Shown here: positions 4,028 through 31,128 of the stretch, piece by piece
Numbering within the stretch: the stretch's first letter is position 1
Layout: the number at the start of each line of letters is the position of its first letter
Assembly: GCA_012295275.1 (NCBI GenBank)
Contig: CM022679.1
Coordinates: 4,650,001-4,714,000, forward strand
DNA: 64,000 nt
Direction: 5' to 3'
Source: Chrysomallon squamiferum
Taxonomy: Eukaryota; Animalia; Mollusca
Notes under the pieces: model-generated
What the model was told of the DNA's origin: nothing
What the model saw: only the letters and a program-made list of their open reading frames with translations
Database searches by the model: none
Position numbers and translations under genes: made by a program

Positions 4028-7000
4028 ATGGATGTCACCAAAAGCAGTATGTAATGTTTATTCTAAAACTAATTTGGAATTAATTTGTTTTATTTCTTTA
4101 CGAACCGATATTCACTTGCAGAATAAGTGCATTTACCTAATTAAGTAATAGTTCATATTAAGTTGGTTTTATTTTATCATTCAGAAAAACAAAAATGGCA
4201 GAATTTTTCGCGCACAATTTGAACGATGATATTTCCATGAATTATTGAAATGTTACGAATGTATCACTGAACGTTAACATCATTCATTGGGGTTTTTTAT
4301 GAGTTAATAAATTATCATCTGAATCGCTGTGTCTGTCTTTTCTCACAATTTATACTAAAATAATTAATTAAATGTGGTTGTTTTCCAATTTTGTTTTTCT
4401 GCTTTCATTTTTACTATGAGATATTAAAATTGTGTTAGATGTATATAACACATCGCTAATTATGCAGTTTAGGTCTGTATCATCTTAGAATCACATAAAT
4501 ATTGAAATTCAATAATTTTCACTTTGGGAAAAAAATACAAATGGAAATATGTAGCTGCTTGCTAAACAGTGTTAGGAGTGTACGCTTTCGTCTTTGTCAT
4601 TCTGAGTGAGCTTAGAAGTTATTAATTAGATATATGACAATATCTTATATTTGATTTATATCCATTAGATACAGAACAAGAAATGTTACAAAGGCTAAGC
4701 TAACTTAATTCACACAAACTGACAGTGACAGACAGTACAGTTAGCAGCTACTTACCATTTGTATTTGTTTCCAAAGCCCAAAGTCACGAAAGTGAAAATT
4801 ATTTGCATTTAAATATTTATGTGATGTCAATAACTAAATAAGATTGATTTTGAAAATATTTTTTACATCTCATTTCAGCCTGAAAAAAATAGTACCTTCA
4901 TTTGATTTTGGAAATTGATCAGTTTTGAAATTCATAATATATATATTCTATTATTATTAATTGTAAAATTTATATTCATTTAATAAAATAACTGCATCAA
5001 AGTATTTGATGTTTTGAAAAAGATTTGTTTTTAACCCTTTTGTTGTTATTATACTTCATATATATATATATGTTGTTTTCATTATTATTTTAACACATTT
5101 TCAAATACGATATATCACAGAATTTGTAAGGCACAAACCTGTCATAATGGGAACTATTAGGATACTTGTTTTAACATTGTAGGATACATTTTTTTTTTTT
5201 TAAACTTGTAAATTTTTCTCATAAATTATGCTCCTCATGTGAAATATGTTTGTTAATTGTACAAAATGTTTTCAAATTTTAGATTTTACTTCTGTCATCA
5301 GTGAAGTTGCAGATGCAATAGAAGAGGCCGACTTTTTAGCCATTGATGGAGAATTTACAGGTTTGTATAAAATTTCACTAAATAGTTTATGAGATTATGT
5401 TTTTATGTTATCAGTAATAGGAGTACATGTATAAATATAAGTGTGTGTCACTGTGTATGCGTTAAAAATATGTACATTAATAAATGATATTAAGAAACTG
5501 GTATAGATCGTACAAGAAGATGGAAAAAATTTTTTTTTTTCTTTATTTTGTGTGTGTGAATTTCTTGGGGAGGTTTTTTGTTTTTTTTTGTTGTTTTATA
5601 TGCATTTTGTGTTTTTCCCCATGTGTATCAGGCATATTCTTGTTGTTTGTAAGATAAATATTTTATTTTTTAGTTATTTATTTTTTATTTTTTTGTAGGT
5701 TTAGAAGTTCCACAAGCAGGTCGTGTTACTTTCTATGACACACCAGAAGAACGTTACCAGAAACTGAAGAAGGTTGATTGTTTTAATTATTATAATTAAT
5801 TGGTTTAATTTATTATTATTTTATTTTTATTTTTAACTGTGATCATTTTCATTTCTTTTTTAAACTGGTTCATTATAATTTTTGCTTTTATTTTCAAATT
5901 TAGTTATCCTTGAATAATTTTCATTCTTTATAAAATAGTTATATAAGATATATTATATCTTAGGAATAAACAGAGAAATTCTGTATAACTATATGAACCT
6001 TCAACAAGAATATGTGGTTGTTTTTACAGCAAGATGGTATCTGTACTTACATATAATAACAACATTTTAATGAATTTAATAAATAATTTTAAAATATTGA
6101 ATATTTAGTCTTTTTTGTTTTCAGGGATCTATGGACTTTCTCCTTATCCAGTTTGGCCTGGCAGCTTTTACATACAATGACATAACAAAGTCGTAAGTAC
6201 ATTACTGATAGAAACATACTTAATGTGTCACCTAAATATTTTTTATGACTTCTTTGAAACAAGAAATAAACCTGTGCTGATAATAAATAATGACAGAATA
6301 ATAAGCACACTGGCTGACATTTTTTTTAATTTTTTTTTAATTATTACATCATTTAACATCTGAATTGTCAAAACAAACCCATCAAAATCTTTACTGAACT
6401 TAGTATATCTTTAGTGTTTCTGAGATTTTGAATATTTCTCTACACAAAATGACAACATTTGGACAAGAAAAGAAAAAAGATAGTATTAACTTCTGTGCAT
6501 CTTCTTAGTTAATAAAACTAATAAGTTATTACAGACTTTAAAACGCATAGTAAATGTTAATACATAAGCATGTTAAAAGTACAAAGACTGAAGTTATTAA
6601 TATGATTATATTTTTGAGATAACTCAAAAGACTCAAAGAGCCTCTTTAACAATAATACATACTGTTTACATACTGCTGCTTTTGATGCAGTTAGTCTATG
6701 GAATTACAGCAGTTCCTTTTTTAATAATCGTTATAGAAAAATTATATGTAATATCTGATGTGAATTTCAAAATGGTTGAGGAATGGTTAAATATTCATTA
6801 ATTCTTTAAAGTATACAATATTATCATAATTATTAAATTTTATTTAAAATTTCAATTTGTTCATGAAGCATTTTTAAAATGTTTTCTAAAACTTTTTTAT
6901 TTTAGTTATAGAGCCAAGTTATTCAACTTTTATATCTTCCCAAGACCATACACAAGACAGGCTCCTGATAGGAGATTTTTATGTCAGGTGAGATAATTTA

Positions 7001-8789
7001 CAAAATTCTTCATTGAATATTGTTAAATATCATGCAAAATTATAAAGAAATATCAGATTTTTATTTTTGACAGAGTAACAAATGATGTGAGACTGAAAAC
7101 TGTCATGTGAAAATATTAAAAACAGCACAGTCAGCCCTGAGAACTAATCTAGTAAATTAAACAAGATTTTGTTGTAATTGTTTTTATCACCAGTGTTGTA
7201 TGTTATACTTGATTCAAATGTGCATTAACTAAAACAGTTTAGCTTATTTTATGATATTCAGTTTTGCTGAACCGATACTTTTAATAATTAATTTAGCTTC
7301 CTAGTAAAATATATCTATTTGTATTATTTCATTCATATCAACTTTTCCTTTTTAATTTTTTTTTTATCTTTTGACATAATTAAAACTGAATTCATTTATT
7401 TGATATTTAAAAGTGGAAAATCAAATTCTGCAATAACATATATTTTTTGTTTATTTCATTTAATTTTTTTATTTGTATTTTTTATTTTTATATATATTCT
7501 TTTTTCACTTATTATTTTTACTTATTTTATTTTTTTCAGAGTTCCAGTATTGATTTCCTAGCATCTCAAGGCTTTGATTTCAACAAACTTTTCAGAGAAG
7601 GTTAAATACACTTAAAGTGTTTTAACATATTTTTATTTAAATAGTTAATAACCATTTGCACTTAAATGCATCAACAAAATTCAGTAAATTCATAAAATGC
7701 ATGCATACACATTTTTAAATATGCAGTTAAGAAAGGAAAACTTAAAATAAGGCAGTTTAAAGTAAGTGAAAACATTCTGAAACCAGAGCAAAGAACTCTT
7801 AACTTGACAGACAAAATTTAATTTTTAACAGTGATGGGCATATGTAATTTTATAAATTAAGTATGGGCTATGATGCTTAACTGTTTGTGCTAGAGTTTCC
7901 AAATTTGGAATGTATATATTTAAAAACATCCACTACAAAATGACAGAACAAAAATCTTGGAAAAATTAACTGTTCTTTTCATAAATATAACCTTTTTACA
8001 ACTTTCTGTTGGTTCAAAATACAAATGAAAAACATTTTTTATTTTTATTTTTTATTTTTATTTTTTTAAATTATTTCTTTCCAGATATATAGACAAAGAG
8101 AACTTTTTTTCAGTTATTTTGTAGAAATAAATGTCTATTATGAATCTGATCAGTTTGAATAATATGTATATATTAGTTTGGGTTAGAGAATGATATCCCA
8201 TAATATTTTTTAAAAAAGTAAAAAATAAAAGTAACCAGTTGTCATGAAAAAATAAACTAGTACTATTTTTTTGTAGTAACAAAAGGGGATTATTTCCATC
8301 AAATTTCAATTCTGTAAATTAAAAAAAAAAAATAACATCTTTTTATTTTTGTCAGACATTGTAAAAATAGAAAAACAAATTCTATATAAAAGCATAATAA
8401 AGTTTTTAGCTTCTGCTGCATCCCAGGTATTCCCTATTTAACTCTGGCTCAAGAAACGGCGCTGAAGGAAACTATAGAAAGCAAACACAAAGACTATAAC
8501 CAGTTCTCATCCCCAGCCTACATGAGTCCATTCGGAGCAGACCCTGGTCCAAGCAAAGGACCTGTCTGTGTGCCGGACGAACACAAGGACTTCATCACAG
8601 ATATGAGGTCATTTTCTTCTCACGTTCTCCAACTTAATTTTCTAATTATTATTCTCATTGCTGTTATTATTTGTTCTAGTAGTAAGTATGTATGTATGTA
8701 TTATTATTATTATAGTTGATATAACCTTTATCATTAATGTCATTTAGTAGTAGTAGTAGTAGTGATAATAATAGAAGTATTTATTATTC

Positions 8790-8845
<56 letters not shown>

Positions 8846-11800
8846 AAAAATTATGAATTTGATGAGATTTGATTACTTGATATATATATATATTTTGCAG
8901 ATTTTGCTACTGATTAAATACAGGTTGTTAACATTATTTTGTTAAACAGTGTGTGTCAAAGTGACAGTGTGAATTATTTCCCACTTTATGACTGCTTATC
9001 TCTCTATCTACTGTTTATTTAACCTTTGTTATTCGATTTTTTTAAACAGTAACAAGATTACCAAGTTTCTAGAACAGGATTCTGAAGAAACACTGAAGCT
9101 GCCATCTTGTAACGGCTATTTGAGAAAACTCATCTACCAGACCATCAGACTCAAGTAAGACATTCATTTAGACTGTTCCTTGAATAAAACCTCTCTTTTT
9201 CATAAATCATGTTAGCTGTCATGTATATGTTTTTGACCAGAGATAGAAGCTGCTATTTTTGTTATATATTTTTCATTGCAAATAAACAGTGAAGTCTCAT
9301 TTGTGGTTAGTCAGTGAAATATATTAGTAATAAAACCTGCTGTTACCATTATACATATTTACATGTTTACCTAGCAAACAAAAATACTGTGGTAACCTTG
9401 ATTTACAAGTTTAATTTGTTACGTGACCGAGCTCATAACTCAATTTGCTCTTATATATCAAATCAGTTTTCCCAATAGAAATGAATAGAAACACCAATAA
9501 TCCATTCCAGCCCCCACAAAACCACCCCATGTTTTTGTAACATGTATATAAATAAGATTTTTTTATTTATTTTTTTTTATTTTTTTTTTTTTTTTTTTTT
9601 TTTTTTTCCCACTTTCTCTCACAATTGTAGACATTCGTCATCTGTCCACTTGGAGACCAAATCTGGGGATAACAAAGAAAGGTTTATTGTTGTTACAAAG
9701 GTCAAAGGTGAAGATGATATGAAAGTAAAAGAACAAGCCAAACAAGCTGCTGAGATGGTAAATTAACAATTGTAAAACATCTTTTATCATCTTGAACAGT
9801 TTAATATTACTGTCACATTCATAAACTGTTTATTCATAATCAAACACTGAAAATGTCAGTCTGTCTGTTATTCTAACTCCTTCCTTCCTTCTGTAAGTTT
9901 TCTTTTTATCCATCCATATCATTTTAGTTTCTATCCATGAAAGAAAAACTATGTAATTTATTTTGTATGTGTATTTATAAATGTTTTAAATATTCCTTTC
10001 TCCATATTTATTTATTTGTTTGTTTGTTTATTTAAGGAAGAACTTGATGATGCTGTTGGTTTCTGCAAAGTTACTAGACTTTTATCTCAGTCGGTATGTG
10101 AAATAGATATATCTAAATAATGTAAATATATATATATATGCTTATAGGGACACACATACAGATACATTTCATTACTTCACTCCTCATATTTTTGACAGTA
10201 AATGTTGTATATTTTTCTGTATCACAAAGAACATTAAATGTATCAATATTTTGTTGGAAATAGAATTATCCATAATGTCAATGACGTTTCCAATGTATTG
10301 CCATCTTTTCTTTCATAGTAACTTCTTTGTCTTATTAAGTTGTACCACTTTTAATTGTTTAACAATGCATTTACTTTTTGTTATGTAATGGTGTATTACT
10401 CTTTGTTACATTATGTTTTGTTTTTATAGCTTGCTGTTTTTTCGGATGTTTCAAAAAAAAAAAAATTATTATATACTGTAGAAATTTCTGTTTCAGGGAA
10501 AACTCATTGTGGGTCACAATATGTTACTTGATGTGATGCATTTAATCAACCAGTTCTGTTTTCATCTACCAAAGGTATTTATTTATATTTTCATAAAATT
10601 ACTCTTTCTGTTTAATAGTTTTGTAATGAGCAACCAACACTGTTTGTTTACTTTTCCTGACCATGTTAAAATATTTACTAATATCACATTATACATTGTT
10701 CTGAAAAAGATGTAAAATAAAATACTTTGGGGTTACATATAACTTGAAATGAGTAGAGGATAACTTACAACACAGCCAGCCATAAAAGCAGGTTTGAATC
10801 TGTATAATCTGCTAAGATGTTGACAGTGAACAGTAGATACATGAAATTATTTGTGACGTTAATCATGAAATTATTTGTGATGTTAATCATGTCATATGGA
10901 TTCCATTTAAATCAGTAATAAATTTTATTGTATTTTTATTTCTCTTCTTTTCTTTTCTTCACTTCTTGATCTTGGATATTTGTTCTGTTCCCATACTTGA
11001 CCATTACTAATATTTAATGTAAAGAATTTACTGAATACAGTTTGCCAGCTTGCAAACAATATATACCTGATATAGTCAGTATTTATTTATATATAACAGT
11101 ATGTAGCCAGATATAAAAAATGTATTGATTTTATAAGCATATAAAACCAAAAATATTTAACTTGTTTTCTTTCTTTGCAAGTATTATCACAACTTTTCTT
11201 GACATTTCAGGAATATGATGAATTTAAATCCCTTACTAGGTGTATTTTTCCCAGGTTAGTCTGTATTTTAATCATTTCTGTTTCTTTGTCAACCTTCATG
11301 ATACAGTATATTCAGATAACATAAAACTTGTAATGACACAAATAAGTATTTTTTACATTAGTTCATTTTGTAAGAGTTATCTGTATCAGTGTTTAAACAT
11401 AAAGAAAGACAGATAATTAAGACATTAATGAAACACTCCATATCAAATTAGGTTATCAAAAATCAAACAAGATCTTGTCTTTCTTTGCAAGTATTATCAC
11501 AATTGGTATTATAACACTAACTGGGTAACTGAAACAAAAAAGGAGAAAATAACTAAATATATCGGATATTTGCTACTAATACGGTAATAATTTTTTTTTT
11601 TAAATAGAATTATGTTTTTATTTTCAGATTGCTAGATACCAAACTAATGGCAACAACAAACCCTTTTAAGGTATTTTAACAATCTAAAATAACATGCACT
11701 TGGGGAATATTTCAAATTCCAACCTCTATCTCATTGTTGTATCAAAAGCCAAAACAGTTTCTTTAATAAGAAACTGCATACAAAATGTCATGATATAATA

Positions 11801-14800
11801 AATAATGAGTCATGATACCACAGAAAGGTTCTATGAGATTTCCAGTACAAATTCATGTTTTTGTCACTGATACCTATTTTTATTTCCATTTCTTGATATT
11901 TTAAACTCCTGTATTATAATAATTTGTCTGACTATTGCTTAATATTTAGAAATTTAGATATTTTCAGTCTGTTTTATTTATTTTATTTTATTCTATTATT
12001 TTGTTATTATTAATTTTATTTTTTATTATTATTTTTTTTTTTTGGATAAACATTGTTATTACTATAATTCTGTTTTATTCTCTTCTCCAGGATCATATTC
12101 ACAATTCAACACTGGGTGATCTGAAGAAAATTCTGGAATATCATCCCTTTACAAAGCCCAAGGTTGGTATGTATATGAATCTACATCTTATATTGTTTTT
12201 GAACTTACATTGTTTCTCTCTCTGTCTCTGATGTTTCAAGTGTACAAGAGCTATATAGGAATTGTTCTATCATCCATTTGTCTCAGTATTTAAAACTTGT
12301 GTTCTGGCTTATTTTTCAAAATATTTGTTTTATTGCCTTCTTTGTTAGAATTGGAATCTTTCTGTTTATCAGAAAAGCCAGGAGTTTAGCATTAGCCTTT
12401 TTTCCTTTTACACTAACATTCAATAATGAGTGTTATTCATTATCCTTTAATCCAAAAATGAATTTTGATATTTAAAAACTAAAACTCATCCATTGCAATA
12501 TCCAAGCACTGCTTTCTTCTTTTTATTTTTTTTCCTTTTTTTTTTTTTTTTTTTTTTAATCTCAATTTTTTAGATCTGCCAGAAGAGTTTTCTCGGTACA
12601 GTGGAGAAGCCCAGCTGCATGAAGCAGGATATGATGCGTTCATCACTGGCATCTGTTTCATTTCCATGTCTAATTACCTAGGTTTGTTTCATTTCCATGT
12701 CTAATTATTGAGGTTTGTTTCATTTCCATGTCTAATTATCTAGGTTTGTTTCATTTCCATGTCTAATTATCTAGGTTTGTTTCATTTCCATGTTTAATTA
12801 TCTAGGTTGGTTTCATTTCCATGTCTAATTACCTAGGTTTTTTTCATTTCCATGTCTATCTAGGTTTATTTCTTATTTTATCTAGGATTGTTTTATTTTT
12901 CAGTTTGGATTTTTAATTTTCAAATTAATTATCTAGGTTTGTTGTTGATCTCTTTTTTTTAAATTATTTTGGGGTTTTCTTTTTTTTTTTTAGTAATTTT
13001 TTTTTTTTTTTTTTATTTGTTATTTATTTATTTCAATGGGGTGGGGATTGTTTATTGTTTACATAATTTTCAAATTTTTGGTAAGGAGTTTCATCTTGTA
13101 TTTTATTATTATTATTTTTTTAATGATGATTATTATTATAGCTGTTATTGTTGTTGTTGTTGTTGTTGTTGATGATGTTTTTATGAAGTTTTGTGTTATA
13201 ACTGCAGGAACTTTTCAGAGTCCAACACAAGAATATGTCTCTCCTTCATCACGTCTCATAGAGCCTTTTGTAAACAAGTAAGTGTGAGACTTCATCAACC
13301 AGTTAGTAATAATAAGTACACTCTGTTTTGTATATTTTATTTTATTTTATTTTATTCTATTTTCATTTCACAAGGCTTGTTTCTTATTTTTTTTACTGTG
13401 AAGTGATATGAAAAAAAACCTAAGTATTTTATAAACTTCAGAATGAATCTCTTACCTTCTACAATCAAGTTTTTACTAACTGTAGAGAATGAAAATTGAA
13501 TAGCAAGGTGAATAAATCGAAGGCTACCAGTCTTATATAAGTTTCAACGTACTCAGTGTTTCTTATAAAATATATTTTGATATTTATATACAAAGTGTGA
13601 CATTTAAACATAAGAATTTTTAAAGTTAATTACTGATTTGTGTTTCCCTGTGTTTGTCATTATCAGTGTTAAAAACTGGCAAGATTAACATTATTTATAA
13701 TTTTATTTGCAGACTCTATTTGATGCGTGTTTCAGATGTTCCGTACATAAATCTTAATGGATCAGACAGTAAGTTGTGTTTTCTGGGTTTTTTTGTTGAT
13801 GTTGTATTTTATTAATGTTGTTATCTCAGTTTGTTTAGTTTTAAGGGTTTGTTTAGGTGATGTCTAATATTTCTTTTTGTTTTGTTTTTTGGGGGTGGTA
13901 TTTTTGTTTTATTTTATATATTTTTATTTTTTTAATTTATTATATATTAGGTGTCTTCATTTTTCTTTCAATTTTTCTTTTCTTTCATTTTTTTTTTATG
14001 TTATTCTTTATTATTTCTTTATGAATATTGCTAATCTAATATTAAGAAAGACATTACTGTATATTTTATGAGACACCTCTAGTTATTATTTTATCTTTTC
14101 TTTTGTTTAATTTTGTAATTTTGTTGAAAATAAACAAAATTTATTTGAGGATCTGAATTTATTTTTGTTTTTTATATTTGTGTGTAAATCTCAGTATGTG
14201 TTGTTGTGTAAACAAAGAGACAAAAAACCTTTAAATTAAATTTTATTCTTTTTTTTATGAAAACCAGAACAAATCTTAATTTAAAAAAAAAAGATACTAG
14301 AAATTCTGTTTATGTGTAAACATCTGTCTAGAATTTAGTATTTTTATTATTATTATTGTCAGAGATGAGACAAATTATACAATGAAAAAACTTCTCTAAA
14401 AATTAAATTAATTTGTATTTCTAATTAATTGATGTTGACTGCTTTACATTAGAGAAAGAATAAAAGAAAAGATGGAAAACAGAAAAAAAAGGGATAATTT
14501 AATGTTTTGCTGAGAACGTATGACTTTTTTTCATGAAATACAATTTATATCATTTAAATCAAGGTTTAAGTTCATTAAAACACTTGTTTTGTTTTCAGTA
14601 CAAGCAAGTAGAGATCATGTCTTTCATCTTACATTTCCCAAAGACTGGAAAACATCAGACATCCATCAGCTGTTTTCTCCATATGGTAAATAATATTTAG
14701 TTGAGATTTACTTTGAGTGTGTGCAATTCAAACAACACTATACGAATGTGAATAGAAAACTGTTTGTACTTGTTTGAATTTTTAAACTGTTACTTCTACT

Positions 14801-16814
14801 GTAAGAAAAATTTTCACCCGTGAGAATTGCTGATACAAAATTTATCTCATTATCATTAGCAAGACAGCAGTCAGTACTAGTCATTGTATTCAAAACAAAC
14901 ATGATAACTTTGTTTACATTATCTCCCATCGTGTCTGCACTTTCACACCAGTTTTTTTACATAATGCTCCATTGGTAATATATCATTTAGACTTTGACTA
15001 ATAGTATTTAAACATGATAAACATATTAAAGTTCATTTAGAACTACTAATTTTTTTTTGTTGTTTTTGTTTTTTGGTGGTGGGAGGAGATGGGGGGGATC
15101 TCAGATGTTTGTTTTGACTTAACTATCGGTGAAGTTCATGAGTAGACAAATTAATCATTCAAGACTGACATTTTACCAAGTTTGATGATGATGCATTGTG
15201 TACTCAGTGGATGTAATTACTCTCAGGCAAAAAAAAAGACTATTAAGAGAGTACTACACTTTAAAGTAGCACTCGGATAAATAAACACTTTGATACTGTG
15301 AATGTAGTTTGTTTGTTTAACCCCAAAGAAAAACAAAAACAAAAAAAATCAGCTATTGAGTGTCATTCAGAGGTAAACAAAACAATTATTTTTAAAAAGT
15401 CAGTGTAAATAGCTGAATTACAGGGTGTGTGTGTGTGTATTGGTTGTATTTGTATGTATGTGTATGTGTATATTGTAAAAGATATAAATACAGAGAAAAA
15501 TAAATACAATTATCATGCAATCTTTTTTAAAAAAACTTTATAACAAGCAGTGGCAGTTAAATAATTTAAACCAGGGTCTTGTCTCTAACTGGTTTTACAT
15601 CCAAACAGTCCACCAGAATGTGGTGTGGGTGTAACATTAAGCTGACAGCTAGGCCTACAAGTCAAACAATAAAGAATTTGATTTGATCAATAAAAATAAA
15701 ATGTTTTCTTATTTTCAAAGAGAGAAAAAAGAGCAGTATACAAAGCTGAGTATTAATGTTTCATTTTGAATTTGCAAAATAATTTTTTATTTTTTTTTTT
15801 TTTTTTTTTTTTTGTTTCACTTCAAATGTTTAAAAATTCATTTCGCAGAACCCTAATTTATTAAATTTTGTATAACTTTATAATTAGACAACAAACAGAC
15901 TGTGGTAGACCAAGGATTCATTTTCCAAATTTCCATATGATTAGTTTTTTTTCTCTTCTCTTAAACTTTTATTTTTACTATTATCTGAATTAAGATTTTA
16001 TTGATGTTTTATAATGATTCTGTTTTCTGCTGTTTCTCATATACATGTGTCACCTGGGTTGTTTTTCATGAAGTATTTTTTTTTTTTTTTTTATCATTTC
16101 TTATTTATTTATTTATTTATTTATTTATTTGGAAGGGTAGATTTCTTCTGAGTTATCTTACTGTTTGTTTGTGTTTTGAGATTTTTCTCTTTTTTCATTT
16201 AAACTGTGTGTTTGTGTGAGAGAAAGAAAGAGATCAATTGTCAACCAAATAGTATAAAACACCCCCACAAACAATAAATTAAATATATATATATATACAC
16301 ATACATATCACGTTTTTGTCATGCTTTATTATAGCAATAAAATTACTTGGAAGAATTTCTAAAACAGATTGAATCAGCTCCAAAGGCATTCTTTTCACCC
16401 TGACTGATTTATTACCTCACAGTGACTGACAGGAAATCGCAATTCCCGAGTATCCACAGTTCAAAGTTGTTTTATTCACAGCAGCAGTGTAAATCAGTGC
16501 AGTTATCTGCCTTTGTGGTTTCTGGAGAAATGTAATTCTTAGAACTGAGGTTTTGCTGACTCACTGCTATTCATAACATCGACGACAGGATCTCACCAGG
16601 AATTAAAAAGTTCAAAGTGTATTATTGCCTAAGACTGTGTTCAGATATGTTCAGATTTTAGAGATATAATTGTTATTGTGTGGATATTAGTAATTCATGT
16701 ATTACTGCTTAACTGGCTTAAACGTTTTTCATATGTAAATACTACCTAGTGTTTTGTTTTTTATGCAGTTTTATGATTTTTTTTAAAACTGTTATTTTGT
16801 TAGAAGGGGTCAGG

Positions 16815-16845
<31 letters not shown>

Positions 16846-16848
16846 TAA

Positions 16849-16879
<31 letters not shown>

Positions 16880-19154
16880 AATTATTATTATTATTATTAC
16901 TATAATTATTATTATTATTATTACTATAATTATTATTATTGTTGTTGTTGTTACTATTATTATTAATATTATCATCATCATTATTATTATTATATTTCGA
17001 CAGGAAATATTCAGATCTCATGGCTTGATGACACCTCTGCGTTTGTGTCCCTCTATAAAAAGGACAATGCTCAAGCAGGTATAAACATGTTAGCTAAATA
17101 TCTATTCAGATAATAATATAATTATAGATAACAACTCTTCTTTTACATACAGAAATTTGCATGAAGATAAAATAAAACAAAACTTATTGCCACTTATATT
17201 CACTAATTATGTAGATATATAGATAGATAGATAACTACTAGAATTTTAATTTCAGTTATAAAAAAGAAAAGAAACTAACACAAACATTTAAATGAACAAA
17301 AATAGAAATCTGAGTGTGAAGAAAAAATAAAGGAATAAAATCGAAATACGTAAAATTATTGTAATAATTTCACATTGATAGCAATTAACAAACAGATTTA
17401 CACATAAAGCATGTTTCTAAAATATTCTCAACAGTAATAAAGTTTGCAGAGAGTTACGAAACAGTTTTTTAAGATGTTCTGAACTAAGCGTTTGATACAT
17501 TTCAAATGCAGCTTTGAAAGGTTTGTCCGCTGGTAATTCTGTGTACAAAGTGATCACATATGATGCCTACAAGAAAGAGCAGACACCAAAAACGGAACCT
17601 CATCCAAGCAGAAAGAGACCTTCTGAAGACACCGATACAGAAGTGGCAAACAAGAAAAGGAAATCACTGAATGTAGAGTGTGTATATTTGAAATATAATC
17701 ACTGAATGTAGAGTATATTTGAAATATAATCACTGAGATGTTTTTCCAGTATTTTTAACATTAATTATTAAAGTAAAACTAGCTTGTAATATCAGCTGTA
17801 CGTTTTACCTAAACATAACTTGTCTCAGCTTTGAAAAAAGCAAATGCAAATCACGTATGACTTTTTGACTTTTCTTTGAGATGAAAATAGAAATAATAAT
17901 TGCTGCTTTTGCTTCTTCTTTTTTTGCATTTTCTGCCAACTCTTTCCAGTAAATATCTTCACTTCAGTTTACTAATTTGTTCTTCAGGTTAAAATGTTCT
18001 GTCACTACCTGTGTATTTCTGTAGGTTTTTTTGTGTCTTTTTTTTACCTTCACTTGTTCCTCTTCACCTCCCTCCCTATTTCAGCTTTGTTGCTCTTGGC
18101 TTTTTGGTTAGCTTAGTGTTTAGTTTTTCATGTTAACAGAGCTGCCCCATTTGTTTCAAGATTAACATCTACCACACCTGAAAATGTTAAGCAGCAAAAG
18201 AACGGCAGTAACAGCTCTGAACAAGTCGGTGACAAGAAAGCTCAGGGTGACTTCAATATTAAAGAAGGTAAAAATAAAACAAATAAAATGTGCAGTATTT
18301 ATTATGTGTAATATAGTTTAGTAGAAAGAAACAGCAGTTCACTGATAATAAAACGAATCTAAAAATGAAATTTTTCATTAAATATTAAATTTAAAAAAAA
18401 AAATTGATATTATCTACCATATTTATGTCTGTGTGTGTGTGTGTGTGTCTGTGTGATGTGTTTGTGTTTATAAAATCTGGCTTAGTGGAAACAAATACTA
18501 GCTCATTAAATCAAAAATGAAATCTTTTATTTAAGAGTAAATATTTTTTCAAAAGAAAAATTAATATTATGTGCAGAGCTTTATTTAGTTACCAGTTCAT
18601 TATATTTTTAATCATGCATCTGAGTACAACAGTTCACTGCTGTATAACGTCTGTATTGTCAATGACTAATAATAACAGGTCTGACCATTCAAACCCATCT
18701 GACTGGTTCATACATGAAATCTGTTTCTTAACATGTCTGTTCAGTAAATTCAGTAAAATTCCTGAACTTCTAAATTAAGAAATACAGTTTATCTGTTTAA
18801 CTTCAAACAATACACTCTTCTTAAACTTGTTCTTAGATTGTTGTTATTGTTTTATGTTTAAAATGTGGTCATGTTAAAAAATATACATAACTTTTAGTTC
18901 AATAACAACTGTCTTCTCTCAAATACATTAAAGGTGCAAACCAAAAATATAAATGAAATTTATTTTTAATATTTCTCTCTCATTCCCTCCCTCCCAGATA
19001 TTATTTCTGTAGATATTTATGGAGAGACTGGTAGATATAATATGGATGTGCAAATTCATTTAATTTTTTTTTTTTTTTTTTTTTTTCTTCTGCAGATGAT
19101 TCTAAAATGGACACCTGTGAAAAAACATTTGAAGAAGCTGCCAGCTGGGAGTGA
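4028..19154 (+). CDS. PARN: Poly(A)-specific ribonuclease PARN, 22 coding exons, 613 aa
   Basis: Exons 4028-4046, 5283-5360, 5699-5772, 6125-6192, 6906-6987, 7540-7600, 8427-8607, 9050-9154, 9631-9757, 10037-10093, 10497-10574, 11211-11254, 11628-11670, 12091-12166, 12574-12681, 13208-13277, 13713-13768, 14599-14685, 17004-17078, 17512-17677, 18140-18267, 19096-19154. All introns GT-AG; total 1842 nt, open. DEDDh motifs [37 protein letters not shown]; R3H-like region; RRM ([15 protein letters not shown]...[10 protein letters not shown]); C-terminal [14 protein letters not shown] at 19161 and 19241. Confidence 0.97.
12654..12866 (+). repeat. 31-bp tandem repeat x~7 copying the 3' end and splice donor of PARN exon 15
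   Basis: Unit TGTTTCATTTCCATGTCTAATTACCTAG|GTT at 12654, 12685, 12716, 12747, 12778, 12809, 12840 (degenerate). The first copy is coding (CFISMSNYL). Confidence 0.95.
17662..17736 (+). repeat. 31-35 bp tandem duplication across the PARN exon 20 donor
   Basis: AATCACTGAATGTAGA|GT(GTGT)ATATTTGAAATAT at 17662 and 17697, with a partial copy at 17728. Confidence 0.85.
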
Positions 19155-20645: not shown

Positions 20646-20680
<35 letters not shown>

Positions 20681-20754: not shown

Positions 20755-20805
<51 letters not shown>

Positions 20806-21541
20806 TTGTTTCTTAATAACCCTTTATTCAGTCAACTGATGTTCATCTCACTTAGCTCATTCAACAAATTACATCGTAAACAATTTGTGTCATACAGTAA
20901 AACAAACAATCGTAAAGCTATCGCTGGAAGAGGCTATTAATATCCTGTTTGAAATATTTGTAAACAGTTGGATGATAACGATAATATCAGTAATAAATCT
21001 TTACTGCAAGCTCTCATTTTTGTTTTTGACTTGTAAAAAGAATCTATGTAGCATCATGTGATACAGAATCAAATTTTACAGATGTATGGATGACAAAATG
21101 AAATGAAATTACGAATAAACCTAGTAAGTGTATATGTACCTCAGTTTGATTTCTCAGCATGCATTCATGTGTGTGTGTGTGTGTTCGTGTTGTGTGTAAA
21201 TGGTTCATTAATAAGACGAGATCGTTCAATCATTTAATTATCCATGGTGGTTGGATTATAGTGAATTCTAATCATTTTTATCTTTGCGTGTGTGTGTTTG
21301 TTTTTGTTTATTTATTTTGTGTTTTCATTTTTCGTTCAATTTTTTCTTTTTTAAAAAACAAAAAAATTATAAATTTATATTTATATTTATTTTTTATAAA
21401 TATATTGAAAACATTCTAAAATGTGAACATCCAAATTCTAAATTAAAACAGTTATTAGCAGTAATTGTTAACGTAAATACTTTACTTTATTCAAATACTT
21501 GTTTGAGAATTTTAATATTTTTAACATATTAGCTGTCACAA

Positions 21542-21582
<41 letters not shown>

Positions 21583-22480
21583 TGTTCAAAAGATCATTCA
21601 CAAAATAACAGAAATCAAGAGAATCAGCAGGTTCTTTCCATCCCAGACAAAAAAAATCTAAAACAGAAAAATCCAATTGCTGAGAACTTTGTCCCCCCGT
21701 CACTATAAGCTTTATACCCCGTTCATTTGTATAAGATAATCATAATACAAGGTTTTCTTTTTCTTTCAACAGCTTGTTGTTGAAACTAATAATTAATTTA
21801 CTTACTGTTGTTATTAAACGTGGCATACACTAGTCTTTGTGTAAATAAGAGAGGGTGGCTTAAAAGCTTTGTGAATAACAGAACGACAGAGAGAGATGAA
21901 CGAAAACGTTTAGTGATTTTGACTCTTAATTATCAAATTCATTCGAAACATATATATATATATATATATATTATTGTATACTGAGTGTTTTTTTGGGGTT
22001 TTTTTTTTTTTTCTCCCAAATAATGGCGCAATAAATCCAAAATTAAATTTCAGTAAATTCAATCTGCATTGAGCTGGTTTCACCTTGCTGTGGATCGACA
22101 AAAACGAACTTCATCATCATCATGATCTGAGATTTTAATTTTAATTTTTTTATTTTTTATTATTATTATTATTTTTTTAATAAATTCACTCTTCTCTAAC
22201 TATATGTTATAACTGTCCATGAGTGCTTTACTTAATAAAACACTCGTTCCTTCCTTTTTGTTCATAATGAAACTTATTTTTAGTTATTTTAGAAAAAGCC
22301 GATTCCGGAATCTGATGCTGGACAAAGTAAACTCTGCATACTCATTACTCGTTTCCAGAAATTTTTATTTTCAGTTTCTATACAAATAGCGATGTTTGTT
22401 ACTCATCCTTTTTCATACAAAATAAATAGAACAGTGTTAACTTGCTTAATTATGCGGATTATTATTATAATATTAATTAA

Positions 22481-22755
22481 AATAATAACAACAATAACTA
22501 ATAATAACTAGTTTTCTTTATTTTGAAATTTTTTTATAAGAAAATATAGGGAGAAAGAATTTTAAATAAACTGATTTAGCGACATTATAGATAGACAGAT
22601 GTTACTATATTAAACGATATTATTAAAATATTCTCAACTGTTTAATGGGTTAAAGGAAAACTATATTATTCAGTAAAATTTTGTACAGAAAAGCGCTTGT
22701 ATTTATAGGAAAAAAAAACACGTAAAAATGTACGTTTATATTATTTCTTTATTTC

Positions 22756-22822
<67 letters not shown>

Positions 22823-22846
22823 TACTACTACTATTACTAGTACTAC

Positions 22847-22891
<45 letters not shown>

Positions 22892-23520
22892 TACTACTAC
22901 TACTACTATTATTGTTATTATTTGCGGTTTTATTTTACTAATTTTATTTGTTTTAATATTTAATTTTTCATTTTTCATTTTATTATTTATGTATTTCTAT
23001 TATTTATAAAAATTACTAATTTAGAAGTTGAAAAATTCAGAATCACAATAATTTTCTTTTACTTTCACAGTTTAGTTGGAATGATTCATTTTATACAGAA
23101 TTTACCGCGCAGTTACGAAAAACAACTTTTATTTTCTATTTTCAGATGAAAATGAAAGCAAAATGTAGGAATTAACACTTTTACTTTTTAAACTAGTTTG
23201 TTTAAATTTATTATATTATATTATGTTATGTTATATAATAAAATAAAAAATAATAACAACAACAATAACTAATAATAACTAGTTTTATTTATTTCGAATA
23301 TAGGGAAAAAGAATTTTAAATAAACTGATTTAACGACATTATCGATAGATAGATGTTACTATATTGATCGATATTATTAAAATATTCTCAACTATTTAAT
23401 TGGTTAAAGGAAAAATATATTATTCTGCTGATTTGCCACAGTAAAATTTTGTATAAAAAAAGCGCTTTATAACGTACGTTTATATTATTTCTTTATTTCT
23501 TCTTCTTATTATTATTATTA

Positions 23521-23597
<77 letters not shown>

Positions 23598-24010
23598 CAT
23601 TATTATTATTAATATTTTTATTATTTTATTATTATTATCATCATCATTATCATGATCATCATTATTATTATTATTAATATTATTATTATTATTATTGTTA
23701 TTATCGCTATTATTGTTATTTGCAAGGGTTTTTTTTTTAAATTTATTTGTTTTAATATTTAATTTCTTTTATATCTTTTTTTATTTATGCATTTCTATTA
23801 TTTATAAAATTTACTAATTTAGAAGTTGAAAAATTCAGAATGACAATAATTTTCTTTTACTTTCACAGTTTCGTTGGAATGACTCATTTTATACAGAATT
23901 TACCGCGCAGTTACGAAAAACAAATTTTATTTTCTATTTTCAGATGAAAACGAAAGCAAAATGTAGGAATTTATACTTTTACTTTTTAAACTAGTTTGTT
24001 TAATTATATT
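22481..24010. repeat. Tandem direct duplication of ~750 bp with internal (ATT)n tracts
   Basis: 22481-23215 and 23251-24010 share long near-identical blocks, e.g. TTAGAAGTTGAAAAATTCAGAAT and CATTTTATACAGAATTTACCGCGCAGTTACGAAAAACAA. Confidence 0.9.
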
Positions 24011-25718
24011 ATATTATGTTATATTATATTATATCATATTATGTTATATTATATTATATTATATTATGTTATATTATATTATATCATATTATATTATATT
24101 ATATTGTATTATATATCATATATGTTATATTATATTATATTATATCATATTATATTATATTATATTTATTATATTATATATCATATATGTTATATTTTAT
24201 ATCATATTTATTATATTTTATTTATTTATTTATCTATCTATCTATCTATCTATCTTTTTTTTCATTGAAAACGTTTCTTCTATTTATTTTAATTTTTTAA
24301 AATATGTTGAATATTTTCCGAAATATGAACATCCAAATTCTAAATTATTATTAGCTGTTGTTGTTAATGTACATACTTCATTATGTTCAAATATATGTTT
24401 TGAGAATTTTAATATTTGTAATACATTAGTTGTCATACATTATTATTATTATATATATTATTATTATTGTTATTATTATTATTATTATTACTGCTGTTGT
24501 TGTTATTGTTATTTTTGTCGTTATTACCATTTTATTTTGTTGTTGTTGTTGTCACCATTATTATTGTTGTTTACTACTATCATCATCATCTTAATAATCA
24601 TTATTACCAGTAATAAATTAAAATTGTATTTAATGCTGTAAAAATGAAAACTATTTAATATTATTAAAAGTTAAAATTGAATTAAATTAAATTTTAAAAA
24701 ATCGGTTAAAAAAAAAATAATAAAAATTTCGTTAAATGAAACAAATATCAAAACTAATTAAACTATCGTTAACATCGGATTTCATTAAAGGAAATAAATA
24801 TCAATTTTATTAAAATAATATAAAAGTGTATATTAAAACAACAGTAATATAGTATTTTAATAAAATTAATATATATATATATATATATGTGTGTGTGGGT
24901 GTGTATTTGTGTGTGTGTTTTTTGAATGGTGTATCAGTATCATATTATTTTTCTTTTTTAAATCTACCCAGCTTATAATAACTGAAACAAAATTAATGGC
25001 GAAATAGTTTTTAGTGTTACAACAACCTGGGTGTATGGTTTTGTGCCACACTCAAACACAGTGACATGTAAACTGAGAAACAAAGCTGTCATTCATACTC
25101 TCTGCTCAAGCAGGTAACTGGGTATCTCATTTCCAAATGTTAACACGTCCCTCGCATTTTTTTGTTTCGTAATTATTTCTTTATTATTTCTTTATTTATT
25201 TCTTTATTTGTTTGTTTATTTATTTATTTCATCTTGGTATTTTAATCATATATATTAAATCAAGATAAAAAAAATAAATAAATGAAAATATTTTAAATGA
25301 ATTACACCCCCCACCCCACCCCACACATACACACACACACACGCTCGCGAATACAGACAATATGAGAGGGAATAATTAAGTAGCAAGGACGTAAAACTAT
25401 CAAAACAGTATTCAAAACTCCTGATAAATCGTAAATATCTTTTTTTTTTTAAATTTATATATAATTTAATTTTAATTTTATTTATTTATTTTTTTTTAAA
25501 ATTTATTATATATATTTTTTATATTGAAATATCAGCAACAAATGAATAGTAATACGATAAAATAATAATAATAATATAATAATAATAATAATATATATTT
25601 TTTTTATATATATATATATATTTATTTATTTATTATTATTATTATTATTATATCTATAATAATAATACTGATAATATATATTTTTTTAAAATTTATATAT
25701 ATATATATATATATTCAT

Positions 25719-25749
<31 letters not shown>

Positions 25750-27273
25750 TTATATCTTATTACTATTCATTTCTTGCAGTTGTTTCAATTAAAAATGTTA
25801 TTACTTATTTAAATACTTGGTGTTTCATTTTGTTAATGATCTGTCTGAACACGTTCGTTTTGCAGGTGCAACATTACAAATTAATCAAAACTATCAAATT
25901 CTATCATCAGGTATAGCTAAAATAATGTATTATTATTATTATTATATTTTATTTTATTATTATTTTTTTATATATATTTTTTTTTTTATCGTTCCATAAA
26001 TAAATATTTAATTGAATGAAGCAAAAAAATTAATTTTGGGAACTGTTTTACGAACAACAATCAACGTTTGAAAATAATAAATGCCTAATGCGCCAAAAAG
26101 TGTCATTTTTCAAATCGCTTTGTACTGGTTTAGAATGAAGATATCCAGATTTAACCACACGAAGTAAATTACAGCTCGGCGTTCCCTATCAAATTATTTC
26201 CTTTATTTCGATCTGCAGTTTCCCAGAAAACACGCCCATAGCTGATCTCCGGAGGTCTAGGACACGACCTCGTTTGGAGATTGGAAGGCGTCGCTATGTT
26301 GTGGGACTGGAAATGCATGTAAATGTCAATAAAATCTATCCTGTGATTCGAACTTAACAAAACAGCGTATCTTTGTAATTTTATTTATTTATTAGTATTA
26401 TCATTATTTTATTTTTAACGATATTTTTTATTTTGTATAATTTAATTAATTTATTTATTTATTTATTTTTTATTATTATTATTTATTTATTAGTAGTATT
26501 ATTATTTTATTTTTACCTTTATTTTTTATTTTGTATAATTTAATTAATTAATTTATTTATTTATTTTTATTATTATTATTATTATTATTAATTCTTCTTA
26601 TTATTATTATTATTATTATTATACTCTTGCTTTATTTAAATTCGTAAAATCAAGTGAAACTGGTTTATCAAGCATTTTTATAACGTACGCTTGATATTTG
26701 CTCGACTGAAAGCAAACCCTGACCCACATACATACGTACAAGCTAGTGATCTGCACGCGAAACACGGAAGTATTTCATGTTAAGTCGGTTTCTAGACGCT
26801 AAAAAACATTAAAACAAAAATTATACTCGTAAAATTTTGTTAATTACATATTTACGCCATACGAAAGAGATATTACAATAACAAAATGTGATGATTTAAA
26901 ATGACATTTTATCGTTTTTATCAGTTGTCCGAAAAGAAGGTCTAGTTTCATTTTGTTACGATAACCGCTTGATTTTAAATATCAGTTTTAAAACGCTCTT
27001 TGCAAAGCCTTGTGTCAGTATTATTTTAATTTAGCCTAAATAAAAAACAAAATTTAATATACTCATTGTATATCTTTCTTCAGCTTACCTTTCAAAATTT
27101 TTTAAATAATTGGAACAAACAAAATTCTTCTGGTCGATAAACTGAACCTGCATTATCTTTCGTTGAAACCGGTGTCTTCATAATCTTCGTCTTTTAAAAA
27201 AAAAGTATATACTAATAATAAAAAATAAACCAACAATAACAAGGAAGACTTATCCTTTTCTTTGAAGAAAACT

Positions 27274-27352
27274 CCACATTCATTTAGGATTTCTAGGGGC
27301 ATTATTTTTTTTAAACTTTAATGAATGCTACTAGAAATCCCAAACACTGTGG
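27274..27352 (-). ncRNA. mir-365: pre-miR-365 (Mir-193-P2) hairpin; mature 3p UAAUGCCCCUAGAAAUCCUAAA at 27283-27304
   Basis: Mature arm has the same seed as, and differs at about 3 positions from, vertebrate miR-365-3p (UAAUGCCCCUAAAAAUCCUUAU). The 5p arm UGGGAUUUCUAGUAGCAUUCAU (27321-27342) pairs with it, the basal stem is CCACA/UGUGG, and a CNNC motif (CUUC) begins 16 nt after the 3p end. Confidence 0.93.
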
Positions 27353-27681
27353 CATAGCGTCTTGCAAAGCCGTCTGCTCAGTCTCGCGTTTGTCACTGTT
27401 CCGCGAAAACGTAACAGCTTTCCGAGAAACTGTCAATGCGATCTCCGATGCAAGATTAAACTCGTTATCAATCCAGCGTTTGCTGTTTCGCGTGCTATTC
27501 AAGTGTGGCAACGAATACCTTAAACGTAATCATTACTCCTGTTATCTCGAACTAGAGTGTGCGTGAAATAAGCCGCTTCTTTATAGTGTCCTACCCTGGA
27601 TAACTGCCAGATCGTCAGTTCTATTTATAGAAATCTTGGAATTCCAGTTTTTCTTGAGAAACGATATTTTCTTAATTTTCT

Positions 27682-27757
<76 letters not shown>

Positions 27758-27930
27758 CTGTTTGACATACTTATTTATTTAGCTCAGTGGGTATGCAGAC
27801 GAAATAGTAGAATGAGTAGCGTTATCGTTATTTTTATTGTTCTGTTACTGTTAGTATTTTTGTTATTGTAGTTATGCTTATTCTGTTGTTCTGTTCTTAT
27901 TATTATTATTTTGGCTGTTATTATAGATAC

Positions 27931-27985
<55 letters not shown>

Positions 27986-28159
27986 CGTCATCTTTAGCAG
28001 TAGTAGGAGAAGTAATAAAAGTAGCAGTAACAGAAGTAGCAGTAGTAGCAATAGTAAGAGCAGTAGTGGTAGCAGTGGTAGCAATAGTAGCAGCAGCATC
28101 AGTAGTAGTAGTATAGTATAGTAGTAGTGTACTAGTATAGTAGTAGTATCAATAATAGT

Positions 28160-28415
28160 AGTAGTAGTGTATATTTAAAAAAATACTCTGTGGCGCTACA
28201 AATTAAAATATATTTTTAAATATATATATATGAGTGTGTGTGCATATATATATATTTAGAAATACATACATATATATACATACACCTAGTATTCGAAAAA
28301 TGCAGAGAGAGAGAGGCAGAAAGAGAGAATATTAAATAAGTAGATGAATATCAAATCATATTCTATCAAATTCAAAGCTGAATAATAAAAATAAAATTAA
28401 AATTAAAATTAAAAT

Positions 28416-28450
<35 letters not shown>
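28160..28450. repeat. Dispersed ~290-bp direct repeat, copy 1 (copy 2 at ~37865-38170)
   Basis: Shared GTGTATATTTAAAAAAATACTCTGTGGCGCTACAAATTAA...CACCTAGTATTCGAAAAATGCAGAGAG...TATCAAATCATATTCTATCAAATTCAAAGCT, both copies flanked by (GTA)n and (GAA)n. Confidence 0.9.
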
Positions 28451-28451
<1 letters not shown>

Positions 28452-29025
28452 GCAACACTAATAGATATCGGGTTATTTCCCAGCCTTTGCAGCCTCATAA
28501 CGGATTACATCAAACACGCGCTCTTTGTATCAGACACTGTCACAGTTCAAAGTTATGCGGATGTTTTAGACAAACGTCTGTTCATTTTTTACACTGAAGT
28601 TATAATGTCACGTGACCGACTCCGCGGCAACACTGACCCAACATGCGACGACACTGGCGACGTTACAGTGTGGTCCCAAATTCTTGGAAAAAATGTCACT
28701 TGATACGCTGCTGTACTTCACTGATGCGCTTGGTTGAAGGTGGGAGGTAAACTGATATTCTTGTTTTGTCCAAGATGTTCGCTTACCTCATGCAGATATT
28801 GTTATCACTATAGGATACACACGTACACAAAAGAAGAGGAAAAAAGAAATCAAAATGAAATAAATGACAATGTTCTTTTTCCGTTTTTTTCCGGTTTTTT
28901 TTTTTTTTTTTTTTCTGACTCAACGGTATCAAAATATAATAAAAATTCAAAAATTCTTATTTGTATTTCTTTGGTGTCTTTATTTTTTTTTTTTTTTTGT
29001 TACACCGTATAGGTCTCTGTTATCA

Positions 29026-29117
<92 letters not shown>

Positions 29118-29119
<2 letters not shown>

Positions 29120-29327
29120 TTATTTACTGCCTGCTTGCTTTTAATACAGTCATTATTCGTATACATTGTTATTTTTAATGAGAAAATGTATTTTTTATTT
29201 TTCATATTTTTTTTTTCTTTTTTTTTTTTTTTATTATTTAGTTAATGTTTTTAAATTTTAAATTCTATAATTTTAATAGTTGAATATTATTTTTGGTATT
29301 ATTACTCTTTCTACAGAGTGACGTTAT

Positions 29328-29330
<3 letters not shown>
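29118..29330. repeat. Left arm of a long-range inverted repeat (right arm 34364-34596)
   Basis: TTATTTACTGCC...GCTTGCTTTTAATACAGTCATTATTCGTATACATTGTT...TACTCTTTCTACAGAGTGACGTTATAAC is the reverse complement of 34364-34596. Adjacent (CT)n and (GA)n tracts extend the complementarity. Confidence 0.88.
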
Positions 29331-29387
<57 letters not shown>

Positions 29388-29464
29388 ACTGTGTCTGTCT
29401 CATTCTCTCTTCTCTCTTTCTCTCTTTTTTTCTCTCTCTTTTTTTCTCTTCTTTTTTCTTCTTT

Positions 29465-29544
<80 letters not shown>

Positions 29545-29619
29545 TCCTCTTCCGCCCACTGTTCAGAAGTGAAAACACAAACAAAACAAATATTAAAAGA
29601 TAAAATTTATTTTCCAGTG

Positions 29620-29660
<41 letters not shown>

Positions 29661-30287
29661 CAATTTTATTACAATTATAATACAGCCATGAAAAGAAAAT
29701 ATATGTTTTGATGCAAAGAAACAATTCTATAATTCTCTCTTTCACTCTTTCTTTCTCTCTTTTACTCTTTCTTTCTCTCTCCTCTTTCTCTTTCTCTTTC
29801 TCTCTTTCTCTTCTCTTTTTCTCTCTCCTCTCTCTCTCTTTCACTCTTTCTTTCTCTCCTCTCTCTTTCACTCTTACTTTCTCTTCTTTCTCTTTCACTT
29901 TCTTTCTCTTCTCTCTTTCTTTCTCTCTCTTTCACTCTTACTTTATCTTCTTTCTTTCTCTCTCTCACTCTTACTTTCTTGTCTTTCTTTCTCTCTCTCT
30001 TTCACTCTTACTTTCTCTCTCTTTCTCTCTCTCTCTCTCTCTGGTTCTCTTTTATCAGTTATCTCTCACTCCACCTTCAGACATCTTGTGATTGATATTT
30101 CGAGATTATTAATATTTTTTTGAGATACACTTTTATAGCTATCACATTTATAATTAAATAATTCAGGTATTAATATTTTAATTTTATATTTATAAAGCAT
30201 ATCTATTTGAAAAATTAGCACTAATAATATAATTCATTTTATCATAAATATAATAAACTAATTCTTATAAAACAGTATCTTACAAAA

Positions 30288-30331
<44 letters not shown>

Positions 30332-30675
30332 TTAATTTTCTAATGTGTAGAAAGTTAATTTAAATATTTAGATAAAATAAAAAAATATCTATATTAACTG
30401 ATTTTCCAAACTGGGATATGTGTAAAAATTCTGCTTTTATATAGAATAAATATGATTATGGATATACATTTAAATATTTTTTTTTTTTTTATTATTATTA
30501 TTATTAAACTGATATTGAAAAAATTTAAAAATACAAATTTTATATAATTTATATTTGTTACAAGATTTGTATAAATGAGCTTGAGAAGAAACAAGAGAAA
30601 CAACAACTACACAATAACAACAACAACAACAACAACAATAATAATAATAACAACAACAACAACAATAACAATATT

Positions 30676-30720
<45 letters not shown>

Positions 30721-30729
30721 TATAATTCT

Positions 30730-31084
30730 CTGCTACGAAGTTTTCGGCGAATCTGACATTTCCTCCAAAAGTTCTAGAACACCATCTTCCTCCTATCGTT
30801 TTTGACGCTGTGGAGTAGTCTCCCTTCCATAGACGCTTCGCAGTTGTATATATAAAGGAAGTAATTGTCCGCCTCAGTTGGGATTTTGCAGGCCAGTATG
30901 ATGTGTTGACATATGTGGCAAACAAAACCCCCAGTGAGGTGGTTTTTAAATCGAATTTTTACTTCTGGTTTCATCATGAACTGAAAAATAAAAATAAATT
31001 TAGAACATAATGTACATGTAGTTATACATAAATTATTTGTGTGTATATGTGTTTGTGTATGCGCTTATGATGATGATGATGATG

Positions 31085-31128
<44 letters not shown>

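Follow-up and report, generated by a model that had tools for sequence, protein, structure and literature searches.

Is the tail-to-tail placement of the PARN gene and a Mir-193 microRNA (miRNA) cluster in a snail an inherited gene order and, if so, what has kept the two together? The question is raised by a stretch of 64,000 nucleotides (nt) from Chrysomallon squamiferum (assembly GCA_012295275.1, contig CM022679.1, positions 4,650,001–4,714,000), referred to here as the window. Its gene order is PARN, 8,118 nt (from the stop codon to P2), Mir-193-P2, a further 3,517 nt and Mir-193-P1, with both miRNAs pointing at PARN. An original prediction had described PARN on the plus strand ending at nt 19154 and, on the opposite strand, miR-193 and then a miR-365-type hairpin transcribed towards it; the gene model, the hairpins and their seeds agree with that description. 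It had also proposed that the linkage predates the protostome–deuterostome split, which is very probably correct, as the snail, mammals and Lepidoptera share it.

The PARN (poly(A)-specific ribonuclease) reading frame is well formed, with GT–AG boundaries at all 21 introns and a single stop codon (nt 19152–19154). The protein carries the DEDD-type motifs DGEF (amino acid (aa) 28), HNMLLD (aa 291) and HEAGYD (aa 380) together with R3H and RRM domains, and matches to Pfam CAF1, R3H and RNA_bind were found on 7 of the 10 exon pieces scanned. The model shares 79% identity with PARN of Gigantopelta aegis (over 613 aa), about 55% with the Patella and Haliotis proteins and 49% with that of Pan paniscus. 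A comparison of exon 15 with PDB returned two matches only, both PARN chains (2a1r, 3d45), and a homologue search with exon 9 returned one fragment. The product is a DEDD nuclease with an inserted R3H domain and a C-terminal RRM, and its nearest named relatives are PARN; it was set apart from PNLDC1 and CAF1 by this domain make-up and by the names of those relatives, not by a tree. Introns range from 279 to 2,318 nt and sum to 13.3 kb. The start of intron 15 (nt 12650–12870) consists of a minisatellite of about six copies of the end of exon 15, which returns weak tblastn echoes of the exon.

Both hairpins are predictions with strong folds. On the minus strand the P1 region (nt 30862–30950) folds at -32.3 kcal/mol (z -4.92) and the P2 region (nt 27265–27360) at -30.6 kcal/mol (z -5.45), values equalled by none of 200 shuffles in either case. 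The plus strands fold too (z -4.63 and -4.90 for P1 and P2), so the strand was assigned by two features, where the seed falls within the 3p arm and the CNNC motif, which assists Drosha processing. This motif lies 16 nt past the 3p arm on the minus strand of both hairpins, against a background of 6.6% of positions. At Rfam gathering scores neither hairpin gave a match. At relaxed scores P1 matched mir-193 (RF01895) with 20 bits on the minus strand (gathering score 55), and P2 gave minus-strand matches to mir-365, mir-2788 and mir-786, in all of which AAUGCCC stands as the 3p seed. The mir-365 model (RF00659; gathering score 62) gave P2 27.9 bits on the plus strand versus 24.6 on the minus strand; the seed sits at the mature position of the model only on the minus strand. 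Matches to Rfam mir-297 and mir-466 were dismissed, being located on microsatellites. Membership of the MIR-193 family is indicated for P1 by its 3p seed ACUGGCC and for P2 by its 3p seed AAUGCCC on the same strand, downstream of P1. From the shared Rfam matches and MirGeneDB naming, we take P2 to be the same gene as vertebrate miR-365 and insect miR-2788. Supplements of a Platynereis study name the paralogues Mir-193-P1 and -P2, with seeds identical to those of the snail hairpins, and of the 22 positions of the sequenced Platynereis P2 3p arm, 18 are identical in the snail, as counted by eye (PMC12257675). Three RNA runs covered just short A/T-rich patches and are neutral as to expression of the hairpins.

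A degenerate miR-193 hairpin pattern was found in none of the viral contigs or prokaryote genomes searched; it matched four metagenome contigs, which were rejected as animal miRNA loci because their folds were weak or misplaced and tblastn found no PARN on them (best E 0.24). miR-193, but not P2, is flanked by two inverted copies of a repeat of about 330 nt (nt 29118–29437 and 34263–34596, 87% alike and in part CT/AG microsatellite), and recombination between the copies would reverse P1 with respect to P2.

The original prediction recognised no protein gene in the stretch from PARN to the cluster, and the scans agree: six of the 35 stop-to-stop open reading frames (ORFs) in nt 19155–45400 were scanned and none gave a convincing Pfam match, the best (Zn_ribbon_Elf1, E 0.085) falling far below the cut-off. 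An intervening protein-coding gene was rejected on these ORF and Pfam scans. The same stretch contains a tandem duplication of about 780 nt (nt 22463–24038, 81% alike) between PARN and P2.

Table 1. Features of the C. squamiferum window (positions are those of the window).
Feature	Position (nt)	Strand	Details
PARN, poly(A)-specific ribonuclease	4028..19154	+	22 coding exons, 613 aa; exons joined by coordinates
Low-divergence non-coding block	27196..27635	.	contains P2 plus about 280 nt upstream of it
Mir-193-P2 (miR-365 / miR-2788 / miR-786 type) hairpin, predicted	27273..27352	-	3p mature arm 27283-27304; seed AAUGCCC
Mir-193-P1 (miR-193) hairpin, predicted	30870..30941	-	3p mature arm 30877-30898; seed ACUGGCC
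Spliced non-coding host transcript, weak candidate	27089..42057	-	donor motifs
Next protein gene upstream of the cluster	45406..54633	+	FYVE zinc finger exon 48193-48316 (Pfam E 3.4e-14), then armadillo-like exons by eye
GFER/ALR (Erv1 family)	61794..64000	+	cut by window end; same-chromosome neighbour

In humans, miR-193b presumably lies before miR-365a within the host transcript, an order implied by the name of the cluster. The supplement of PMC7505984 (this and the other papers are cited from parts of their text or supplements) places the host MIR193BHG at 14,302,287–14,331,067 on the plus strand of chromosome 16 and PARN at 14,435,700–14,630,276 on the minus strand, a tail-to-tail arrangement that bears out the convergent human MIR193B/MIR365A–PARN pair stated in the original prediction. 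The coding genes flanking MIR193BHG are MKL2/MRTFB and PARN; the 104.6 kb between host and PARN holds the non-coding LINC02130 (14.363–14.370 Mb), and BFAR lies beyond PARN (PMC7505984). LINC02130 binds HIF and ER and touches the host promoter by ChIA-PET (chromatin interaction analysis by paired-end tag sequencing), which places a putative enhancer on the PARN side, between the genes (PMC7505984). MKL2, PARN and BFAR are the neighbours in goat and mouse as well (PMC9779864). As in the snail, the human miR-193b~365a host and PARN lie on opposite strands with their tails facing, and PARN is the next protein gene; unlike the snail, the human locus has a gap of about 105 kb containing LINC02130, is bordered by MKL2/MRTFB and BFAR, and carries its miRNAs in introns of a spliced host. 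No PARN position for amphioxus was found in the supplements of PMC7269912.

A paper of 2011 places miR-193 and miR-2788 of Heliconius 276 bp past the stop codon of PARN (PMC3039609); in Bicyclus, mir-193/mir-2788 lie between cortex and parn (bioRxiv 10.1101/2024.02.09.579741), and in the tea geometrid mir-193 follows parn at a distance of 3.6 kb downstream (PMC12796802). All three papers describe the linkage, so the belief of the original prediction that it had no description in invertebrates was mistaken. A 78-kb deletion in a butterfly removes both miRNAs and part of the parn 3′ untranslated region (PMC8982378). Wild-type reads of ivory, the host transcript, stop just 3′ of parn, and when the miRNAs are lost there is read-through as far as LMTK, the next terminator in the same orientation (PMC13748564); since LMTK is the next gene on the same strand, parn is inferred to be convergent with the host. 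Knock-outs of mir-193, a developmental regulator in insects, alter wing colour (bioRxiv 10.1101/2024.02.09.579741). The lepidopteran ivory:mir-193/mir-2788 locus (the cortex hotspot) resembles the snail locus in carrying the same two miRNA paralogues at the 3′ end of parn, with the host transcribed towards parn, and differs in having cortex upstream and LMTK beyond parn, a spacing of 0.3–3.6 kb instead of 8.1 kb, and an ivory promoter that is lepidopteran. Host transcript and phenotype are known for ivory, whereas the snail locus is known from its sequence alone.

Each half of the comparison is already in print for its own lineage, while the cross-phylum orthology is probably unstated; no paper joining the insect and mammal cases, or treating a mollusc, was found in the open literature, a search with figures, closed supplements, subscription journals and MirGeneDB outside its scope. 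The three phyla share the pair while their other neighbours differ, these being MKL2/BFAR in mammals, cortex/LMTK in Lepidoptera, and a FYVE gene and a membrane-protein-like gene in the snail, which makes inheritance from a bilaterian ancestor likely. The arrangement is likely to be an ancestral gene order rather than a special partnership. The cluster itself is of the bilaterian Mir-193-P1/P2 type, with seeds ACUGGCC and AAUGCCC on the 3p arms and P1 upstream of P2, an order found in all eight two-gene clusters with coordinates (Lottia, oyster, two in Lingula, C. elegans, Tribolium, Limulus and cat shark; PMC12257675). The table in that Platynereis study covers miRNA clusters only, without protein-coding neighbours.

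The best explanation of the locus is that Mir-193-P1/P2 stands tail-to-tail with PARN in an order inherited from the ancestor of insects, molluscs and vertebrates and kept by cis-constraint, with PARN as a passive party; taken as a whole, this account has an even chance of being right. Of its two parts, ancestry of the gene order from before the protostome–deuterostome split is highly probable, while maintenance through cis-constraint acting on the stretch that separates the cluster from the PARN 3′ end is only slightly favoured. In the snail, a minus-strand non-coding host would start between about 37 and 45 kb of the window and head for PARN. Such a transcript is weakly suggested by the asymmetry of AGGTAAG donor motifs in nt 19155–45400, where five lie on the minus strand (27089, 28787, 36890, 39065 and 42057) and none on the plus strand. 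On the model of ivory:mir-193, Microprocessor would cut P1 and then P2, ending transcription before antisense entry into PARN, and the interval at the PARN tail would carry distal enhancers or a domain edge for the host. With regulatory DNA or a domain edge next to the PARN tail, breaks there would be tolerated less often than on other sides.

Low sequence divergence was seen around P2. Compared with run X1, the 440-nt block around this hairpin shows three substitutions and one gap, none within the hairpin; these four differences compare with 20 in the adjacent 431 nt (p 0.0007) and 31 in the other 999 aligned nt (p 0.014; Fisher test), a contrast picked post hoc on one contig of one run. The block lies mostly upstream of P2 and therefore points to constraint on the miRNA, not on the link to PARN. 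A MEF2-type motif occurs within it at nt 27620–27630, and such motifs are common in A+T-rich DNA. Further upstream, G+C-richer islands recognised by eye (nt 36850–37060, 41060–41320 and 43600–43900) contain CCAAT-like or NF-kB-like motifs and are candidate promoter or enhancers of the host.

Several points weigh against this account. C. elegans and the human chromosome 17 copy of the cluster are not known to have the PARN linkage. Genes, order and orientation were read here for the snail, and the human and lepidopteran adjacency was taken from papers; the snail host transcript is itself a prediction from the DNA. Nine of 17 species columns lack an intact two-gene cluster (seven miss a member and two are unclustered), and amphioxus has P1 copies only (PMC12257675). 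Goat miR-365 is assigned to another chromosome (PMC9779864), and the human miRNA copy flagged for long-range regulation is mir-193a/mir-365-2, not the PARN-linked pair (PMC3123655). In butterflies the read-through passes across parn, so PARN itself is not the terminator (PMC13748564). Bicyclus wings show no open chromatin around the miRNA region, and Drosophila mir-193 lies in a different context and still affects melanin (bioRxiv 10.1101/2024.02.09.579741). The brachiopod Lingula speaks for the ancestry, though indirectly. Two PARN copies, identical at 604 of 607 positions, lie on scaffolds of 1,121,267 and 262,045 nt, and two P1/P2 clusters (spacing 10,440 and 9,991 nt) lie on scaffolds numbered 10 and 500 (PMC12257675). 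A gamma size model, using the published assembly size and N50 (PMC4595640) and assuming 3,500–4,466 scaffolds numbered by size, predicts 1.12–1.18 Mb and 255–261 kb for ranks 10 and 500, which suggests, by way of the size-sorting assumption, that a Mir-193 cluster lies on the scaffold of each PARN copy; a log-normal model (2.0–2.2 Mb and 0.19–0.21 Mb) fits more poorly. The PARN copies (P0255 and P0369, 99.5% identical) are probably uncollapsed haplotypes, and the two annotated clusters may be one locus.

A serious rival to constraint is neutral survival of a short interval: the genes would have been adjacent in the bilaterian ancestor and stayed unbroken because the distance between them is small in many lineages, with no selection involved. 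The target is indeed small, at 276 bp in Heliconius (PMC3039609), 3.6 kb in the moth (PMC12796802) and 8.1 kb in the snail. Drosophila tolerates loss of the linkage, and parn mosaic knock-outs have almost no colour phenotype (bioRxiv 10.1101/2024.02.09.579741); PARN is unchanged by knock-down or overexpression of lincNORS (PMC7505984). However, every other neighbour has changed in all three lineages, and the human interval grew to about 105 kb without breakage (PMC7505984). Deep microsynteny is also rare and mostly put down to cis-regulation, with 595 non-paralogous pairs in at least four lineages, and orientation is fully retained in just 15–25% of non-head-to-head pairs (PMC3514665). We regard neutrality as possible but unlikely. 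The snail pair resembles the conserved ancestral microsyntenic pairs and genomic regulatory blocks of that survey, in which unrelated genes are adjacent across phyla and a developmental regulator lies beside a housekeeping gene; the survey's criterion is four lineages, and for the PARN pair three are documented (gastropod, mammals and Lepidoptera), with Lingula indirect (PMC3514665). Neither miRNAs nor PARN come up in the main text of the survey (PMC3514665).

The original prediction favoured a regulatory block with PARN as bystander, and in its classical form, with enhancers of the miRNA host inside PARN introns and PARN trapped by them, this fares worse and is improbable. PARN is intron-rich (21 introns in the snail), the human gene spans 195 kb (PMC7505984), and in insects mir-193 supplies the developmental regulator with an unrelated neighbour (bioRxiv 10.1101/2024.02.09.579741). 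In one tea-geometrid cross, 463 of 463 melanic-specific 31-mers fall in parn intron 3, an association only, with other populations peaking elsewhere (PMC12796802). The expectation of long introns nevertheless fails in the snail, where the longest PARN intron is 2,318 nt, whereas human bystanders average 2.7 introns of >10 kb (PMC3514665). The described human enhancer lies between the genes and not inside PARN (PMC7505984), and Hi-C of H. erato pupal wings contradicts the model with an ivory-centred domain that has cortex as its sole protein gene and no outside contacts (PMC11388343). Short introns in the snail and a butterfly domain that leaves parn outside make enhancers within PARN introns doubtful.

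Functional coupling is very unlikely; on this reading the linkage would serve to co-ordinate PARN with miRNAs that it trims or de-tails, or that repress it. The general premise of the original prediction stands, as PARN shortens miRNA 3′ ends (PMC6380276), and ectopic pri-miR-193b increased PARN mRNA in goat myoblasts (PMC9779864). The coupling to this cluster is unsupported: most miRNAs are targets of PARN in trans (179 of 247 were more often extended in knock-outs), and miR-193 and miR-365 are unnamed in the main text of that paper (PMC6380276). The snail PARN coding sequence and the 3.3 kb past its stop contain no 6-mer or 7-mer seed site of either miRNA, and parn and mir-193 are oppositely expressed between moth morphs (PMC12796802).

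The snail GFER exon at the end of the window is 87% identical to that of G. aegis, and none of the other 119 matches listed exceeds 73%; together with the PARN identities this marks the animal as a gastropod near Gigantopelta. PARN and GFER lie on contigs of equal length in five of the eight species common to both match lists (Gigantopelta, Ptychodera, Discoglossus, Bombina and Mixophyes) and of unequal length in Patella caerulea, Batillaria and Xenopus laevis, and in four of those five species the two accessions, both looked up, are 128 to 1,414 apart. Shared contigs with such wide gaps point to an old common chromosome and not to a block. Human GFER is about 12 Mb from PARN. It is absent from the human gene table searched (PMC7505984 supplement). 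The GFER link drawn in the original prediction holds as same-chromosome synteny only, and GFER was rejected as a member of the PARN–cluster block. Coincidence, with the neighbours formed separately on a common ancestral chromosome, is highly improbable: one old PARN–GFER linkage group (five of eight species) makes a chance re-meeting easier than it would be genome-wide, but the same neighbour, side and orientation would be needed three times, and for two further lineages within-group shuffling gives 1e-6 (500 genes) to 2.5e-7 (1000 genes), or 7e-5 over 70 tries in a 500-gene group, figures that assume the size of the linkage group.

The window as a whole is animal DNA with a high A+T content and many microsatellites. 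Automatic modelling of the FYVE gene (nt 45406–54633) gave no open path. Upstream of PARN are the last two exons of a further gene (nt 347–2322), with hydrophobic stretches and a claudin-like appearance by eye; one exon was scanned and had no Pfam match, and a frameshift suspected in the last exon was dismissed, as the frame is open. A direct repeat of about 360 nt (nt 28101–28452 and 37801–38160, 90% alike) is probably a dispersed element.

No new molecular machinery is revealed by the locus. With it, Mollusca, and perhaps Brachiopoda, join an adjacency hitherto described separately in Lepidoptera and mammals, and in genomes that lack annotation PARN becomes a landmark by which cluster and host transcript can be located. 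Whether miRNA hosts hold their neighbours as transcription-factor genes do can readily be tested on this pair. If the loci are orthologous, the best-studied insect colour locus and human 16p13.12 are syntenic orthologues. A bolder and tentative proposal, which we think somewhat unlikely, is that the cortex/ivory hotspot, the human MKL2–PARN locus for puberty timing found by genome-wide association studies and the snail region are one bilaterian locus, a non-coding host of Mir-193-P1/P2 with a regulatory domain that ends at the PARN tail and is held by selection. If true, this would be a miRNA-anchored regulatory block that predates the protostome–deuterostome split and that separate phyla have drawn on anew for cis-regulatory variation; variants of pigment or shell in molluscs might then also be found there.

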